From Candidatus Jordarchaeales archaeon (lineage in GTDB: Archaea > Asgardarchaeota > Jordiarchaeia > Jordiarchaeales > Freyrarchaeaceae): a stretch of 32,000 bases of DNA. The stretch covers positions 434,499 to 466,498 of the forward strand of contig JAWAHN010000001.1 in assembly GCA_038889235.1 (NCBI GenBank), in the 5' to 3' direction. A program made the translations under genes and the position numbers. The notes below the pieces were generated by a model, which saw nothing but the letters and a program-made list of their open reading frames with translations, did no database searches and had not been told where the DNA came from. Below are positions 1,155 to 17,672 of the stretch, piece by piece (the stretch's first letter is position 1; each line of letters starts with the position of its first letter).

Positions 1155-3584
1155 TTAAAGTGGGGGTTTCTTTTGCACGGTTACTTGGCGTACCACAGCG
1201 AAAGGTTTGAACTCACGCCCGGTACCATGGTAGAATTTCATGAACCACTCTACCCAGTGAAGCCTTAGTGTATGCAGGAATGATAGGAGCCCCTCGAAGG
1301 ACAATATGAGCAGCGAGATCAATATTGCCCCTATCAGGGATTCCTGTACTATCACAGGTATCTTTATGTTGAGAAACTCTTGCGTTGAAAGTGCTACTGC
1401 TAGTGTTGGCGTGTATGGGGGGATTTGTAGTCCTAGATGCGAGAATAGGTAGTGTACTGCCGCTAGAGCGAATATTCGTGCGAAGCTCACCGTGTGTGAC
1501 AGGAGTGATAACAGCTGGTCGAATATTTCCGAGAAACCTTCTGACTTGTCATGGGACACCGCTATTGTTCCAACAAGTGCCAGTATTGCCGGTAATAGTA
1601 CGAGGAAGAACACGCTTATTGATGCTGGAGGCAAGTGTATTTCAAAGCGGGAGGTCGAGTTCCAAAGGAAGAGCTGCTCAACTAAGTGGAGGGTCTCTGA
1701 CATTTTCTCTGGGAGAAGGTGTAATGCTTCGAGGAACTCTAAGGTGTGCCAGATTCCCTTGTCTAAAAGGTTGGGTGCTAGAGGCTCGAATACCTTTAAC
1801 GGCCTTACAGTCATGTAGGAAGTTATTGAAAGTCTCGTTATGAGTTCTTGCGCTGTGCGGGAAGCTTCGATCGCGTTAGCTAGGAGCCCAGCCGGGGTTT
1901 CGTGGTGGGCGTGAAGCAACTCTGTTAAATGCTTGTATAAGGCCTCTGCTGTCGGATCTAGGAACAGTGGAGTGTTTGTTAACGGGTTTACGATTAGCGG
2001 GGGCGTTGTGGAGAACCATTTCACGAAGTCTAATCCATACTGGTCGCTGAAAATTATGGTCATAGCTCCTATATGCGTCCACATTAGGCATATAGGCATG
2101 AAGAAAGCTTCCTTGAGTTTCCCCTCGTGGTAAAGGTTTACTACTCTGAGCAGGAAGCCGAAGTTTATTTCTATTATCGCGACGACTATGACGAGCCTTA
2201 GGAATCTGAAGTTTCCTTCTGGCGTGAACGGGTTAAACCAAAGTGGATCTATGACGTGATGTGAGCCGAAGAACGAGCCGTAAAGGAAGCCGAAAAGCAC
2301 TGACGCTAAGCCGCACCAGAAGAGGAGGGCGCCGGCCTTTAGACCATAGTTCATGATTTCGCCGACAACGGGTTTTCTAGTGCGCCACGCGACTAGAGCA
2401 AGCCCTATTAAGGCTAGTATTGCCCCGTGGGCTACATCTCCAAACATCATGCCGAATATCAGTGGGAAGGTTATTACCATGAACTTTGTTGGGTCGATCT
2501 CGTTATAATTTGGTATTCCGAAGCTCTTCACCAGGGCCTCGTATGGTTCTGCTATCTTCGGGTTTTCTAGCTTCGTCGGGCGCTCCTCTTCAGGCACAGT
2601 TGGCTCTATTACTTCTATAACCGCTGTTCTTTCAGTCGCCGCGTCTATTGCTTGGACGACTTTTTTCGCCGATTTCAGCGGGACCCAGCCCCATAGCTCA
2701 ACTGTGGTCTCGGTTCTCCTAAGGTAGTTTTTGACCTCTATTCTTTCTTTCTCTATGGATAGGATTTCCTTGCAGGCAAGTAGCTTGTAGCCGTACCGTT
2801 CTATTATCTTCCACTTTTCGTCTTCAAGCTTCTTAAGGCGGTCTTCCAGGGATTTAATTTGTTTGCGTGTTTTCTCGATTATTTTTTCAGTTGTCCCTTC
2901 AACCTCTGACGGAATCTTGAACTCTTCGAAGCCGAAGGCGGTTAAGAGACGTTGAACAATTTCCTTTTGCTCCTTGAAGACTGCTACTAGTAGAACTGCT
3001 CTACCTCCGCCTATGCTGGCGTGATGGAAGATGTAGTCACCTTTAGTCACCTCTGCTAGTCTCCATCTCAGCATGCCTATTTTGTCTTCAGAAATTGTTC
3101 CGGCGACTGCGTAAACGTAGCGCCCTTCCCCTATGTGAGCCAGCTCTATTCCAAGTGGTTTAACTGTTTCAGCTATCTTGAGAAGTGCACGCCGCTGCTC
3201 AAGCTCCTGGTTTGCCTTGGTAAATTCTTCTCTGAGCGCGTCAATTTTCGGTGCCGCAGCTTCGAGGGTCTCGCGCGCCATTGCCACTACGCTTGAGAGT
3301 TTTTCGTCGTCCACCGCCATCTTTTTGCTTTCAGGTAGGCGTGCAATGTATGGCACGTATTTCTCGATGTCTAAGTAGTCCACGTATTTTTGGATGTCGC
3401 TGAGCAGCTGTAGTGCCTCTTTCTCATCGTCACTCAGTTTGACTGGTACGACGCCACCCTTCTCTTCTATGTCTATTAATTCGACTTCTCCAAGCTCGTG
3501 TATGCAGCGGATGAGGGCACGCTCGTAATCTTTGTGGCAGACGACCTTCAGTATCCCTTGTTTAGCTGGACGTGGCCAAACCAT
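1155..3584 (-). CDS. atpI: A/V-type ATP synthase subunit I (a), about 809 aa, with a long loop insertion
   Basis: Motifs YNEIDPT, FGMMFGDVAHG, SHTVSFARIFAL and LHTLRLHWVEWFMKFY. Start moved from 3605 to ATG 3584 based on the SD-like GAGGGAG. Confidence 0.95.
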   Translation of the reverse strand: MVWPRPAKQGILKVVCHKDYERALIRCIHELGEVELIDIEEKGGVVPVKLSDDEKEALQLLSDIQKYVDYLDIEKYVPYIARLPESKKMAVDDEKLSSVVAMARETLEAAAPKIDALREEFTKANQELEQRRALLKIAETVKPLGIELAHIGEGRYVYAVAGTISEDKIGMLRWRLAEVTKGDYIFHHASIGGGRAVLLVAVFKEQKEIVQRLLTAFGFEEFKIPSEVEGTTEKIIEKTRKQIKSLEDRLKKLEDEKWKIIERYGYKLLACKEILSIEKERIEVKNYLRRTETTVELWGWVPLKSAKKVVQAIDAATERTAVIEVIEPTVPEEERPTKLENPKIAEPYEALVKSFGIPNYNEIDPTKFMVITFPLIFGMMFGDVAHGAILALIGLALVAWRTRKPVVGEIMNYGLKAGALLFWCGLASVLFGFLYGSFFGSHHVIDPLWFNPFTPEGNFRFLRLVIVVAIIEINFGFLLRVVNLYHEGKLKEAFFMPICLMWTHIGAMTIIFSDQYGLDFVKWFSTTPPLIVNPLTNTPLFLDPTAEALYKHLTELLHAHHETPAGLLANAIEASRTAQELITRLSITSYMTVRPLKVFEPLAPNLLDKGIWHTLEFLEALHLLPEKMSETLHLVEQLFLWNSTSRFEIHLPPASISVFFLVLLPAILALVGTIAVSHDKSEGFSEIFDQLLSLLSHTVSFARIFALAAVHYLFSHLGLQIPPYTPTLAVALSTQEFLNIKIPVIVQESLIGAILISLLILSFEGLLSFLHTLRLHWVEWFMKFYHGTGREFKPFAVVRQVTVQKKPPL

Positions 3585-6693: not shown

Positions 6694-6704
6694 GAGGATG
6701 ATGG

Positions 6705-7187
6705 ATGACTGAACCCAAAATCGGGGCCTTCCTCTGCTGGAAAGGGTTTGACAGCCCCCAGAAATGAGGTTATGGTGCTGCAGACATGGCGGGGACGATG
6801 AGGCTGCAGTATCCCGCTGCAATTAGGCCGATAAGAGTGCCGTGCGCCGGCAGAGTTTCAGCGGACTTGATAGCTAGGTTACTGTGGAAAGGTGCGGATG
6901 GCGTAATGGTTGTAGGGTGACGAGTCGGTGAGTGTGCGTTTGAAAACGGGAACATTATGGCAGCAAGGCACGTCGAGATAGTTCAAGACCTGCTGGAACT
7001 TATGGGTCTTGGCGCGGGGAGGGTGACGATGGTTTACTGCTCCTCGGCTGAGGGCAAATACTTCGCTGAGGCGGTTAGAGAAGTAAGCGAAAAAGTGAAG
7101 GCCTTGGGTCCTAACCCTTTAAAGGCGAAAAAAGCGGATGAGCTTGGAGCCAAAAGCGCACGAGCTCCAAGTGACCCCCTCAGCTAA
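6705..7187 (+). CDS. mvhD: MvhD/VhuD [2Fe-2S] subunit, selenoprotein with two UGA (6765-6767, 6918-6920) and a predicted 21-nt intron; join(6705..6742,6764..7187), 153 aa
   Basis: ATG 6705 follows GGAGG. The spliced product reads MTEPKIGAFLCWK-U-GYGAADMAGTMRLQYP...RVPCAGRV...GADGVMVVG-U-RVGECAFENGN...LGPNPL. The track shows only the last 76 aa. Confidence 0.92.
6743..6763 (+). other. Predicted BHB intron (21 nt) in mvhD mRNA
   Basis: Central helix CUGG(6737-40)/CCAG(6758-61), bulges AAA(6741-43) and AAA(6762-64), inner stem GGGUU/AGCCC with a UGAC loop, outer pairing CCUC/GAGG. Cutting after the second base of each bulge restores CxxU spacing. Confidence 0.8.
7136..7177 (+). promoter_or_regulatory. 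Eukaryote-like SECIS candidate inside the mvhD 3' coding region
   Basis: A-UGAG (7138-7142), 8-bp stem CUUGGAGC/GCUCCAAG (7143-50/7164-71), apical loop containing AAAA (7152-55), then UGAC (7172-75). This gives the tandem G.A/A.G core. Confidence 0.75.
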
Positions 7188-9529: not shown

Positions 9530-11763
9530 TTACAGCGTGTCTATGTACTCCTCAGGTTTCGGCGGTTCTGGTTTCAGTCCTTTTCTCTTCCGGATTTCAG
9601 CTATTACTTCACTTAGCAGAGACTTTGGAACTTCAGCCCACCTTGAGAACTGTGTTTGCCAGAAAGCTCTGCCAGAAGTCTTTGACCGCAAGTCATTTGC
9701 AAGCCCGAAGCTTTCTCTTACCGGTATCTCTCCATTCACGAATACTAGCGGGCCACGCTGCTCTATGTTTATAACATGACCTCTGCGCTGGGATAGTATG
9801 CTTGAAACCGCCCCTATGTACTCTGGTGGGACCATTACTTGGATCTTGTATATTGGCTCGAGCAGGGTTGGCTTGGCGCTTAGGAATGCACCCCACGTGG
9901 CACGCCTGCTCATAGGCATGATTTGCGCTGGCCCTCTGTGAACGGGGTCCTCGTGCAGCTGGCAGTCCGTCACTATTACTTTAACGCCTCTCATGGGCTC
10001 CTCGGCAAGGGGACCTGCTTCGCAAGCCCATTTTATCCCTGATATTATTGTCTCCTTCACCTCACGTAGGTACTGGATGCCACGCGTCCTGTCAACTATC
10101 ACATTGCCGTACTCGTCAATCGCCCAAATGTTCCTGGCGTCATGAGGGTCCCAACCAGCTTTTTCTCTCAGAATCTTCGCCCTCTCATCTCTCTCTTGGT
10201 ACTCCGATATTTCGCCCTCCGTGAGCAGGTTTACCGTCTCCTCGTTAAGCGGCTCAACCATGATCCAAATCCTGTTGTGCTTGTTCGGGCTTTTTCCTAG
10301 TACCGGCTGGGAGGACGAGGTGACCGTTTCCCTGTAGACCACTATTGGCGGTGAGACTGTGATATCAACTTCTGACTGGATTTCCTTCAGAGCTATTTCG
10401 AGGTGTAGTTCGCCCATTCCCGAGAGCAGGTATTCTCCGGTTTCTTGATTAATCGTCGTCACTATGTTCGGGTCTTGAATCGAGATTTTCTGCATCAGTT
10501 CCACAAGTTTCGGTAGATCTTTCGGGTGTTTCGGCTCTATGGCTACGGTGACAACAGGCTCTGAAATGTACTTAATTTTTTCAAATGGAACCACGATGTC
10601 CTTTATGTTTTCGGCTACCACGGTTTCTCCAGCTCTAGCCAGCTCCAGTCCGAGCAGAGCCGCTATGTTGCCAGCTGGTATGGAACTGACTATGGCTCGT
10701 TTGGCACCCATGTAAATGCTCGTCTGCTGAACCCTGTAACCTTTCTTAGCTGTGAGCAGGTAAACTTGGTCTCCTTCACTTATCGTGCCGGAGAAAACTC
10801 TCCCCGTCGATACTATTCCCGCGTGGGGGTCGACTATAACCTTGTTTAGACAAATTACAGTTGGGCCGTTCTCATCGCACTCAAGCATCGCTTTTCCTAT
10901 CTCGCTGTTAAGGTCCCCGTGCCAGATCTTCGGCACTCTGTAGCGTTGAGCCTCAATCGGGTTGGGAAGGTGGTCGACGACCATGTCCAACACAGCAGCA
11001 TGAACCGGGAGAAGCTTCTTGAGCTCGTCTACCCTATCTTCCTTGTAATAGGCGACTATGTCACTAAACTTCAACCCTAACTCGAGCATTTGAGGAACAG
11101 TAAACCCCCACCTGTGAAGGGCTGAACCAAAGGCCACGCTACCATTAGCCGGATTAACCTTCCACTTGTTGGCGAACTCCTTCTCACCATAAATGTCGAT
11201 TAAACCATTAAAATCTCGAATAATCCTGTTAAGCTTCTCTTGGACGCCGCGCTCGTCAAGCCTTAACTCGCGGATTAAACGGTCAATCTTATTAATAAAC
11301 AATACGGGTCTGACACGCTCAGATAAAGCCTGTCGAGTAACGGTTTCCGTTTGGACGCCTATCTCCTCTACGGCATCTACCACTACGACCGCGCCGTCAA
11401 TTACTCTTAAAGCTCTCGTAACGTGCCCGGTGAAGTTTACGCGAGCGAGCCAGCCGGCTCGTTCTCTACGTGTCCGGGCGTGTCTATGAGGTTTATGAGG
11501 TACTCTTTCCCGTCGAACTTGTGCACTAGAGATATGTTAGCGGCTTTTATTGTTATCCCTCTTTTCTGCTCCTCTTCAAGGTAGTCCAATGCCCTTGCTT
11601 CTCCCGCTATCGTTGGGGAGAGTAGCCCAGCTTCAGCAAGCAGGGAGTCGCTTAGCGTTGTTTTGCCGTGGTCGACGTGTGCTATTATTCCGAAGTTCCT
11701 TATCTGCTCTTTCACTCGCATCATTCTTTCAACTTCTTCAATGTACTTCATCCTTGCAGACAA
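9530..11763 (-). CDS. fusA: Translation elongation factor 2 (aEF-2 family), spliced: complement(join(9530..11436,11466..11763)), 734 aa
   Basis: Exon 1 has [15 protein letters not shown] and DTPGHV. Exon 2 continues [28 protein letters not shown] and [12 protein letters not shown]. The exons total 298+1907=2205 nt, which is 735 codons. Confidence 0.93.
11437..11465 (-). other. Predicted BHB intron (29 nt) in EF-2 mRNA
   Basis: Helix ACGU/GCGU, bulges AGA (11467-65) and AAA (11438-36), inner stem GAACGAGCC/GGCUCGCUC (8 of 9 bp) with a GGCU loop, outer CCCGG/CCGGG. The intron contains an in-frame TAA. Confidence 0.88.
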
Positions 11764-12022
11764 AGATTTCCACCTCTCACCTTCTTAATGGTGAGATTAA
11801 GATAACAGCTTTTAAACCTTTTTTTAAACCTTTTCAAGTTTAAAAAGCTGCAAGCCCCCGGCCTAGGGGACTTATACCTTAATCAGGAGCTTCTAGTGTT
11901 TTACTGGGGCGCAAACCGCTCACTTTCCGAGTTTTGCACCACGTTCTTTAAATTGGTAAAGGTTAAATAGGTCGCCACTTTCATCTTGTTGACGAAAATT
12001 TCGTTAACAAAGGGGGGCATGT

Positions 12023-15765: not shown

Positions 15766-17672
15766 CTGTATGGTTCTCCTCCCAGCGGCGGTCCGGGCTC
15801 AACTGGTTCAGGCGGGAACATCTCTTCCGGAGGGGCACGTCTCATCTTGTAGATTGCGAACGCGAGAAGAAGTGCAGCTGTCGCCATGGGAACCACTAGT
15901 ATTACGAGCATCATTGTAAAGTAGAATGATGAGGCTTCTTGACTTAAGAGGTAGAGTAGCAGAAAGACCGTTGGACCCACGCCCTGTATCTTTACCTCAG
16001 CTATCGTCTCGTTGTTACTGTTAACGAACTTTATTGAGCCAGAGAAGAATGGAGCCATGTATGATGACGGGATGTAAATCGTGGCGGTAACAAACTTATG
16101 CGTGTTGTTAAGATCAAATGGTCCCCCCGGTGACAGAGTTATTAGGCTTGAAATACCGCCTTCAACTTCGACCTTCACGTTGCTTAGGCTATTGTCTCGA
16201 GCCAAACCGCCAACTATAGTGAAGTTTACTGTTACGAGTAACTGGGAGCCGAAACTAGTCAATCTAATCCTGGGAGGGGACACTGCCACTGGAACTTTTC
16301 CGCTGCAAAGCAGTTCGTAAGCTGCTGACACATTGACTAAACCACAACCCTGCGCATACGTATCCTCATCCAAGTCGACCGCAGTAGCCATGAGAGCCGC
16401 CTTCACCGTATGAGGAGTTAAATTTGGATTGTAGCTTAAAAGTAGGGCGACTGCCCCTGAAACGTGGGGGGTCGCCTGGCTGGTGCCACTCATAGCCACA
16501 TAACCCTGGGTATTGTTGTAGCTGAGAGAGATTATGTTCACTCCTGGAGCTACAAGGGTCACGCCTGTCCTATGGTCACGTGTTGGTCCACGGCTCGAGA
16601 AGGAGGGTATATAATAGGAGGGTATATAATTAGAGGATGTGACCGCACCCACACATATTGCGAATGCTGCTTCAGCCGGAGCATTTATCGTACCACTGTC
16701 AGGACCATCATTACCAGCAGCAGCGACCACAACGACTCCTCTTAAAGTAGCATTGTTAACCGCCAGACAAACAGGATCGTTAGGATCATTTATTAAGGCG
16801 CCAGCAGAAATAGAAATAACTTTAGCTCCATTATCCACAGCGTCTTGAATTCCTTCGATCAAGTAATTAAGGTCTCCTTTACCGTCTTTGTTTAACACTT
16901 TTATGTTTAGTAGTAGGGCGCCGGGCGCGACGCCGACATACCTTCCTTCACAGTATCCCGCTATTATGCCGGCTACGTGAGTCCCATGACCGTTAAAGTC
17001 AGCGGGGTCATTTTCGTTCTTGACAAAGCTACGGTTATATATTATCTTACTGGAGGGTAGTGCTTCATGGGTGTTTATTCCTGTGTCGAGGACCGCGACT
17101 TTGACTCCTGTCCCGTTTATGCCTAGCTCGTGTAAGCGTCTTGCGCCTATTTGGTCTATTCCTGCGGAGTAGGTTGTAGTTGCCTGCAGTACGCTGTGTG
17201 CTGTGCTGTGAATTTTGATTTCACGGTTATATGTCACTGATTTCACAAAGTCTAAGGATGCCATGTTTGCCGCCATCCCTATGGGAGCCTTAACCAGGAC
17301 GCCGCTTATTATAGTGTATGTTCTGAGCACCGTGACGGCTTCAAGCGACTTGAAGAGTTCAGCTCCCTCCATAGAGGTGACTCCTTGAAACGTTACGATC
17401 ATTTCGACTTCACGGTTCGGGTCTCCTCCGTTCATCAACGATGCTAATTCCGGATCGATTTTTGACACCTGGTTATTTGTTGGCTGGACGCCCGGTTGGA
17501 GTATCACTACGGCTTGAGCTGGTTGGATGCTTGAAGGCTGAGTTAACATGAGTGATGCAAAGAGGGTCAACAGTAGTATGATGAAAAACAACACCGAATT
17601 TTTTCTTCTAGCAGTCAATCTTGCAACCCCTTTCCACTTTTGGTTTCTCCTCTTTGATATGAGGAGGACCAT
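15747..17672 (-). CDS. Membrane-anchored subtilisin-like S8 serine protease (signal/TM, I9-like propeptide, catalytic domain, C-terminal TM, Pro-rich tail)
   Basis: Catalytic motifs VAVLDTG, GHGTHVAG, AAGNDG and SGTSQATP, with hydrophobic segments at both ends. Confidence 0.92.
   Translation of the reverse strand: MVLLISKRRNQKWKGVARLTARRKNSVLFFIILLLTLFASLMLTQPSSIQPAQAVVILQPGVQPTNNQVSKIDPELASLMNGGDPNREVEMIVTFQGVTSMEGAELFKSLEAVTVLRTYTIISGVLVKAPIGMAANMASLDFVKSVTYNREIKIHSTAHSVLQATTTYSAGIDQIGARRLHELGINGTGVKVAVLDTGINTHEALPSSKIIYNRSFVKNENDPADFNGHGTHVAGIIAGYCEGRYVGVAPGALLLNIKVLNKDGKGDLNYLIEGIQDAVDNGAKVISISAGALINDPNDPVCLAVNNATLRGVVVVAAAGNDGPDSGTINAPAEAAFAICVGAVTSSNYIPSYYIPSFSSRGPTRDHRTGVTLVAPGVNIISLSYNNTQGYVAMSGTSQATPHVSGAVALLLSYNPNLTPHTVKAALMATAVDLDEDTYAQGCGLVNVSAAYELLCSGKVPVAVSPPRIRLTSFGSQLLVTVNFTIVGGLARDNSLSNVKVEVEGGISSLITLSPGGPFDLNNTHKFVTATIYIPSSYMAPFFSGSIKFVNSNNETIAEVKIQGVGPTVFLLLYLLSQEASSFYFTMMLVILVVPMATAALLLAFAIYKMRRAPPEEMFPPEPVEPGPPLGGEPYRWPYDF
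16601..16630. repeat. Perfect 15-bp tandem duplication inside the S8 gene
   Basis: aggagggtatataat occurs twice and gives NYIPSYYIPSF in the protein. Confidence 0.9.

Follow-up and report, generated by a model that had tools for sequence, protein, structure and literature searches.

A very likely bulge-helix-bulge intron interrupts the elongation factor 2 gene of a Jordarchaeales-like Asgard archaeon

In the literature that we found, an intron of the splicing-endonuclease type has been demonstrated in just one archaeal coding sequence, that of cbf5 (PMC7714728, PMC2738675), and no report of such an intron in a gene for elongation factor 2 (EF-2) was found there. Here we report the analysis of a 32,000-nt stretch of DNA (the window; assembly GCA_038889235.1, contig JAWAHN010000001.1, positions 434,499 to 466,498 of the forward strand) from a hot-spring Jordarchaeales-like Asgard archaeon, in which the single-copy gene for archaeal EF-2 (aEF-2; 9530-11763, minus strand) is interrupted by 29 nt at 11465-11437. 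These 29 nt are very likely an archaeal bulge-helix-bulge (BHB) intron, the substrate of the splicing endonuclease, within the aEF-2 pre-mRNA, and the production of full-length EF-2 very probably requires that the mRNA first be cut and rejoined.

The locus resembles the cbf5 intron of Crenarchaeota (Watanabe 2002; Yokobori 2009, PMC2738675) in its predicted dependence on a heteromeric endonuclease (EndA), in its patchy gain and loss and in the way it misleads annotation, the cbf5 intron being often misannotated as a frameshift. The two differ in their site, which is the catalytic Asp of Cbf5 in one case and switch II of EF-2 in the other, in their lineage (Thermoprotei and Asgard, respectively) and in the kind of evidence, as the spliced cDNA has been sequenced for cbf5, whereas the EF-2 intron is known from DNA sequence. 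The BHB intron in the 5' untranslated region of HVO_1309 in Haloferax volcanii (PMC7714728) is another example with mRNA in place of tRNA or rRNA as the endonuclease substrate, but it lies in an untranslated leader, leaves the reading frame intact and was shown by knock-down with CRISPR interference and by in vitro cleavage. Closest in lineage are the Asgard tRNA introns (Freyarchaeia/Atabeyarchaeia, PMC11291895; preprint 10.64898/2026.10.13.758758), which share with the EF-2 insert a length within 11-60 nt, the motif and a two-subunit EndA, and for which repeated independent gains have been proposed; both reports cover tRNA genes only and leave introns of protein genes unmentioned. New here are the similar introns 4 and 6 nt upstream in other Asgard genomes, which mark this motif as a hot spot for introns. 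A short frame-changing mRNA intron, on whose removal the full protein depends, is also known from HAC1/XBP1, where it is removed by IRE1, which leaves a 2',3'-cyclic phosphate, and a tRNA ligase or RtcB; that system differs from the EF-2 case in its nuclease (IRE1) and its stem-loop signal, and it is a regulated stress switch.

On the minus strand, the interrupted region reads CACGUAG^AGAACGAGCCGGCUGGCUCGCUCGCGUAA^ACUUC, where ^ marks a predicted cut, and the coding sequence breaks off after DTPGHV. The gene is laid out as follows.

11466 to 11751, minus strand: exon 1 of aEF-2, from ATG 11751, coding for MKYIEEV...LIDTPGHV and the first base of an Asp codon
11437 to 11465, minus strand: candidate BHB intron of 29 nt (AGAACGAGCC GGCU GGCUCGCUC GCGU AA), with an in-frame UAA at its 3' end
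9530 to 11436, minus strand: exon 2 of aEF-2, with the last two bases (AC) of the Asp codon, continuing as FTGHVTRAL... up to the stop, comprising the rest of the G domain and domains II-V

Read without splicing, the N-terminal open reading frame (ORF; 11437-11763) continues past HV through ENEPAGSLA to the UAA at 11439-11437, and the remaining 634 EF-2 codons follow in a different frame down to 9530. The truncated product would have 108 aa from the in-frame TTG at 11763, the first start listed, or 104 aa from the ATG at 11751, which is the likelier start. Removal of 11465-11437 joins GUAG to ACUUC and yields HVDFTGHV within a protein of 734 residues (translated with an X at the break); all EF-2 domains are present in this joined protein, in which GTP_EFTU runs unbroken over the junction and aligns to positions 1-187 of the 188 in the Pfam profile. 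The cut may be placed one base to the right with an identical product, because both sides continue with A. An initial annotation made from the letters of the window had described the insert with exactly this sequence, the HVDFTG joint with its 734-aa EF-2 and the unspliced stop after 108 aa, all of which hold, with 104 aa as the alternative for the last. It had placed the insert inside the G3 motif of the GTPase domain; strictly, the site lies two codons past the G3 motif DTPG, in switch II.

EF-2 is a single-copy gene in the genome to which the window belongs (G000; 2.14 Mb, 8 contigs, 95% complete), and the 29-nt sequence is unique there, which ruled out a repeat or mobile element. Group I and group II introns contain a ribozyme core of hundreds of nucleotides, and an intein is an in-frame protein insert; these classes were ruled out for an insert that is 29 nt long, is not a multiple of three and has no match in Rfam. 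Searches of the window with Rfam and ARAGORN gave no matches, and a tRNA-Gln that the initial annotation had placed in the window was not confirmed.

An insert of identical site and length is found, in five sequence variants, on more than 25 contigs of the genus from Logan, NCBI and JGI; the carriers (G001, G003, L044, L063 and ten further contigs) include two other species-level genomes. The resulting ORFs of 108 and 617 aa are on record from 7-19 contigs each, and the public annotation for Candidatus Jordarchaeales at NCBI lists two coding sequences, a 'GTP-binding protein' of 108 aa and an 'elongation factor EF-2' of 623 or 666 aa. In the fourth species of the genus (G002; JGI contig L064), the insert is precisely absent (CACGTAG^ACTTT), and the insert borders are therefore fixed independently of any fold. 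The predicted spliced product, GUAG joined to ACUUC, corresponds to the intronless congener CACGTAGACTTT and restores HVDF, which is universally conserved. The genus tree is an unresolved polytomy, by which loss in G002 and its never having had the insert are not separable.

Purifying selection acts strongly on both exons in their respective frames: between intron-bearing species, the ratio of nonsynonymous to synonymous substitution rates (dN/dS) is 0.017-0.046 at dS values of 0.74-2.1, with 0.02-0.05 for exon 1 against congeners and 0.02-0.03 for exon 2. At that divergence, the intron retains 23 of its 29 bases, and of the six positions at which G000 and G003 differ, three are in the 4-nt loop.

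The insert and its flanks can be folded into the elements of a BHB motif.

11468 to 11471, minus strand: central helix H, 5' strand ACGU (exon; codons CAC GUA), forming 4/4 pairs with 11439-11442
11439 to 11442, minus strand: central helix H', 3' strand GCGU (intron), invariant in the 5 variants
11465 to 11467, minus strand: 5' bulge AG^A, predicted cut between 11466 and 11465
11436 to 11438, minus strand: 3' bulge AA^A, predicted cut between 11437 and 11436
11443 to 11464, minus strand: intron hairpin h', made of GAACGAGCC (11464-11456), loop GGCU (11455-11452) and GGCUCGCUC (11451-11443), with 8/9 pairs here and 9/9 in two relatives
11425 to 11479, minus strand: outer exon-exon helix GCCCGG (11479-11474)/CCGGGC (11430-11425), which is strong and closes the whole motif

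At the homology-defined borders, both cuts fall after the second base of the bulge, which is the rule given for the cbf5 intron (PMC2738675). The proximal outer helix GGA/UUC (11475-11473 with 11434-11432) is weak, with 3 bp. Across the five variants, 96.3% of the pair cells hold standard pairs, compared with 24-39% when the partner is slid by 1-3 columns, and all five stem substitutions (5/5) keep or improve the pairing (A-U to G.U, C-G to U.G, G-C to G.U twice, and A.C to A-U). A 4/4 helix together with at least 8/9 hairpin pairs in that register at L=29 occurs at 7.5e-5 of the genome positions, and the fold has a z-score of -2.86. As a separate observation, the strict motif at L=29 occurs 320 times across G000, compared with ~238 expected from its two parts taken independently. 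A genome-wide scan for BHB motifs joining two open frames returned 4320 loci against 4361 in a wrong-frame control, with no excess here or at other settings that gave similar results, the background being far too high.

N-terminal EF-2 ORFs that end right after DTPGH also occur in other lineages, and their inserts, compared at the DNA level together with ours, form three classes by position.

Class a: insertion behind position 1 of the His codon, 6 nt upstream of the present site; G005 (217 nt) and G033 (33 nt); helix CCGG/ACGG, 3/4 paired
Class b: insertion at the boundary of the His and Val codons, 4 nt upstream; 29-32 nt; helix GGYC/GRCY, with a full 4-bp outer helix
Class c: insertion behind position 1 of the Asp codon; the genus to which the window belongs; 29 nt; helix ACGU/GCGU

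Class b is carried by one contig each from Jordarchaeaceae, Lokiarchaeota, Helarchaeota, JGI and ENA, and its central helix shows one compensatory change from C-G to U-A with a U.G intermediate. Although the helix sequences of the three classes are unrelated, each of the 11 EF-2 inserts would be cut after the second bulge base at borders that are defined by homology. In a sample of 400 Asgard genomes, the majority are without an insert at this site, and close relatives differ: G006 has none, the insert of its nearest contig is of class b, and that of G005, a member of the same genus, is of class a. This pattern suggests repeated gains or fast turnover at this stretch, whose conserved codons (CCNGGNCAYGU) are self-complementary and able to provide the exon side of the motif.

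Several further EF-2 genes were noted on the way. The class a insert of G005, a Freyarchaeum-like genome (L011, ~1819-2035, minus strand), exceeds the mini-introns by far with its 217 nt and combines a 10-bp terminal helix with its 3/4 central helix. That of G033 (L045, G033:C76, ~15850-16060) is in frame and contains a stop at the G3 site, and the same gene has a second break of ~220 nt at residues 218-238. Two other genomes (L015 in G012 and L018 in G023) have an in-frame, intein-like insertion of ~173 aa in the P-loop region (between residues ~49 and 44-50), with an open frame of 919-924 aa. A Bathyarchaeota contig (CP070828.1, L035, 3001-3762) encodes a 254-aa N-terminal EF-2 fragment, labelled 'GTP-binding protein, partial', in the middle of 1.3 Mb and followed by unrelated genes on the opposite strand; many similar 'partial' fragments lie on long Bathyarchaeia contigs. 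Two loci were not used as insert cases, as the EF-2 fragment of P0274 (L041) is followed by unrelated DNA and P0310 (L042) ends at a contig end. In-frame stops in the EF-2 matches of other genomes turned out to be natural stop codons.

The genome encodes candidates for the enzymes that such an intron would require. Two genes carry the endonuclease catalytic domain PF01974. One of the EndA subunits has its closest counterparts in the catalytic subunits of Aeropyrum pernix (heterotetramer; 3p1z_B, E 4e-47) and Pyrobaculum and aligns without gaps over the Crenarchaea-specific loop region; the second is divergent. The pair fits a two-subunit EndA of the broad-specificity type, with an activity predicted from the protein sequences, and this architecture is described in PMC5829648 as accepting relaxed motifs. 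The ligase RtcB is encoded as well (600 bits). In the 2.14 Mb, ARAGORN, run with introns allowed, recognised only 14 tRNA genes; most of these genes have introns at unusual positions, and in nine genes the introns lie at positions 26-42. This agrees with the related classes Freyarchaeia and Atabeyarchaeia, in which 92-95% of the tRNA genes contain introns (PMC11291895). Other protein genes are split too. In kae1 (G000:C1:846094-846107, minus strand), a 14-nt insert shows a perfect GGGG/CUCC helix, an outer helix of 6 bp and the bulges UU^A and AA^A; its removal restores GPGLGPCLR, while rpl44e and cbf5 of G000 are split at the Pfam level. The EF-2 intron is therefore one of a set in this genome.

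From these elements a route from gene to protein can be proposed. In the pre-mRNA, the exon ACGU of the His-Val codons would pair with GCGU near the 3' end of the intron, so that AG^A and AA^A bulges flank a 4-bp helix, and the intron hairpin and the GC-rich exon-exon helix would stabilise the fold. The two-subunit EndA would then cleave each strand after the second bulge base, and RtcB would ligate GUAG to ACUUC, recreating the GAC (Asp) codon and the reading frame, whereas an unspliced mRNA would give the 104-108-aa fragment only. We infer on this basis that the EF-2 transcript is actually cleaved and ligated.

Several observations weigh against an intron and are taken together here, beginning with the structure. 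The strict BHB conformer is not the minimum-energy fold, lying 1.6 kcal/mol above it at 70 C (with the outer helix) and 4.5 kcal/mol above it at 37 C; in the minimum-energy fold, three hairpin pairs are shifted and the 5' bulge is drawn into GAG/CUC pairs with 1-nt and 2-nt bulges. The 3' AAA is poorly closed, either by the weak 3-bp helix behind a C.C mismatch or, beyond an 8-nt internal loop, by GCCCGG/CCGGGC. Since the minimum-energy fold redraws the 5' bulge and the 3' AAA is weakly closed, the motif is a relaxed BHB with a non-canonical 3' half, and a 4-bp central helix with two 3-nt bulges on opposite strands is present in the relaxed sense only. The fold drawn in the initial annotation thus stands in its parts (ACGU/GCGU, AGA and AAA, and the 8/9-bp hairpin are all present) and gives way at these two points. 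The same annotation had proposed a comparison with sister genomes, which revealed the insert in relatives and its precise absence in G002/L064; among the five variants of the genus, the stem changes are one-sided, and no pair has changed on both sides, as strict covariation would require.

The remaining points against an intron concern RNA. No exon-exon joint was found in cDNA or RNA contigs, and the sole RNA contig, which comes from a single run, has an unexpected head-to-tail joint instead of the spliced one. This contig of 330 nt, from a sediment metatranscriptome (X5), covers exactly 11466-11765 of the minus strand with 98% identity (5 differing positions among 300 nt), which assigns it to the same species. 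Its other 30 letters, the first ones, are again 11466-11495 with one mismatch, which indicates a joint from 11466 to 11765, and 300 nt plus 30 (k-1) is the length of a cyclic path in a k=31 graph. Reads across such a joint would stem either from exon 1 as a circular RNA or from a discrete fragment copied head to tail into cDNA. A second BHB at 11766/11765, sought as an explanation of the joint, gave only A/U-rich matches at chance level. The 300 nt amount to 100 codons without a stop across the joint, possibly by coincidence. The discontinuity coincides exactly with the predicted 5' cut (11466) and so supports cleavage there, as far as a single contig can, since contigs cannot prove RNA ends. 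The contig search filters conserved contigs, so that a missing exon-exon joint proves nothing, and the raw metatranscriptomes X9 and X12 gave zero reads on the stretch at ~3% sampling. The X1 contig, of DNA, probably belongs to the source assembly. In the protein collection, no full-length or short protein of more than 84% identity spans the junction; the matches of exon-1 size are all unspliced ORFs, and within the exon-2 cluster a length of 734 aa is found only in the intronless G002-like allele. The exact pattern of the spliced junction was found in JGI contigs only in that intronless allele (L064) and in one unrelated organism.

The RNA contig also bears on an alternative in which EndA cuts the transcript but productive ligation is not the main outcome, such that the intron acts as a throttle or decay signal for EF-2 mRNA, exon 1 is released and circularised, and a fraction is rejoined. 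The end of the only RNA contig at the 5' cut, its joint from 11466 to 11765 in place of exon 1-exon 2, and the relaxed 3' site all agree with this account. A full-length EF-2 is nevertheless indispensable, with no other copy to provide it; exon 2 is under selection in its own frame as strong as that on exon 1; and the support for a throttle comes from one contig of one run. We regard it as unlikely as the main outcome, but as a partial one it is conceivable.

Still less probable is that the 29 nt remain in the mRNA and are crossed by the ribosome, either through a programmed translational bypass (hop) from GUA (Val) to the GUA inside GCGUAAAC or through a -1 frameshift with the hairpin as stimulator. 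The arrangement invites the comparison: T4 gene 60 and the yeast mitochondrial byps also have a short non-triplet insert with a hairpin in an essential ORF, and here a GUA precedes the insert, a second GUA follows 27 nt later, a stable hairpin stands after the take-off site and the insert contains no stop in the frame of exon 2. Matched take-off and landing codons, as in T4 gene 60 and the byps, would however give the wrong residue (Asn for Asp), since landing on GUA produces HVNF and not the HVDF of all intronless relatives, while a -1 shift would bring ~10 non-conserved residues into switch II. Other features of bypassing are absent, with no stop after the take-off codon (the next codon is GAG) and no slippery heptamer. 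The peptide encoded by the insert varies freely among the variants, and the inserts of classes a and b lack matched codons, yet have the common BHB geometry.

The insert is neither an assembly artefact nor the mark of a decaying pseudogene, readings that we consider extremely improbable even though public annotation splits the locus into two coding sequences, as the insert is present in many independent assemblies and runs, the gene is essential and single copy, dN/dS is 0.02-0.05 in both halves at dS above 1, and the insert itself keeps its length and pairing.

With the BHB intron as the preferred explanation, a core translation GTPase would have, in its only gene, an intron whose removal is obligatory, and mRNA splicing by the tRNA machinery would be a part of normal gene expression in this lineage. 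Asgard archaea are among the closest prokaryotic relatives of eukaryotes. The intron would also explain the split annotation of EF-2 in public records, a split that affects marker-gene phylogenies and completeness estimates. The supply of EF-2 would formally depend on EndA and RtcB, and a regulatory link, put forward in the initial annotation as a coupling of EF-2 production to tRNA-splicing capacity, is a possible idea; the intron may equally be a tolerated passenger, because nearly all tRNAs of the lineage need the same enzymes. Most simply, it is a tolerated, structurally constrained passenger in an intron-rich lineage.

The three adjacent insertion points provide a natural system for studying how such introns are gained. 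More speculatively, the switch-II/G3 codons could be a preferred landing site, given three points within 6 nt occupied by unrelated introns of 29-217 nt even in close genomes, for an active, structure-directed gain of mRNA introns, for example if the EndA/RtcB reactions ran in reverse at BHB-like exon sites and the result was then copied into DNA; exon 1, in addition, may accumulate as a 300-nt circular RNA with an unbroken frame. We put this forward tentatively, as a rather doubtful proposal.

Upstream of the coding region, likely expression signals can be recognised by inspection of the sequence.

11770 to 11831, minus strand: two A/T-rich TATA-like boxes (~11831-11810), followed before the ATG by the purine-rich GGUGAGAGGUGG (11781-11770)

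Elsewhere in the window, an mvhD/FlpD-like gene (6704-7187, plus strand) has two in-frame TGA codons where relatives have Cys, possibly for selenocysteine. The same gene contains ~24 extra in-frame bases between ...FLCW and (TGA)GYGAAD; a clean 4/4 BHB that would yield the corresponding product was not found in it. The ORF at 6957-7187 matches positions 74-123 only of the FlpD profile.

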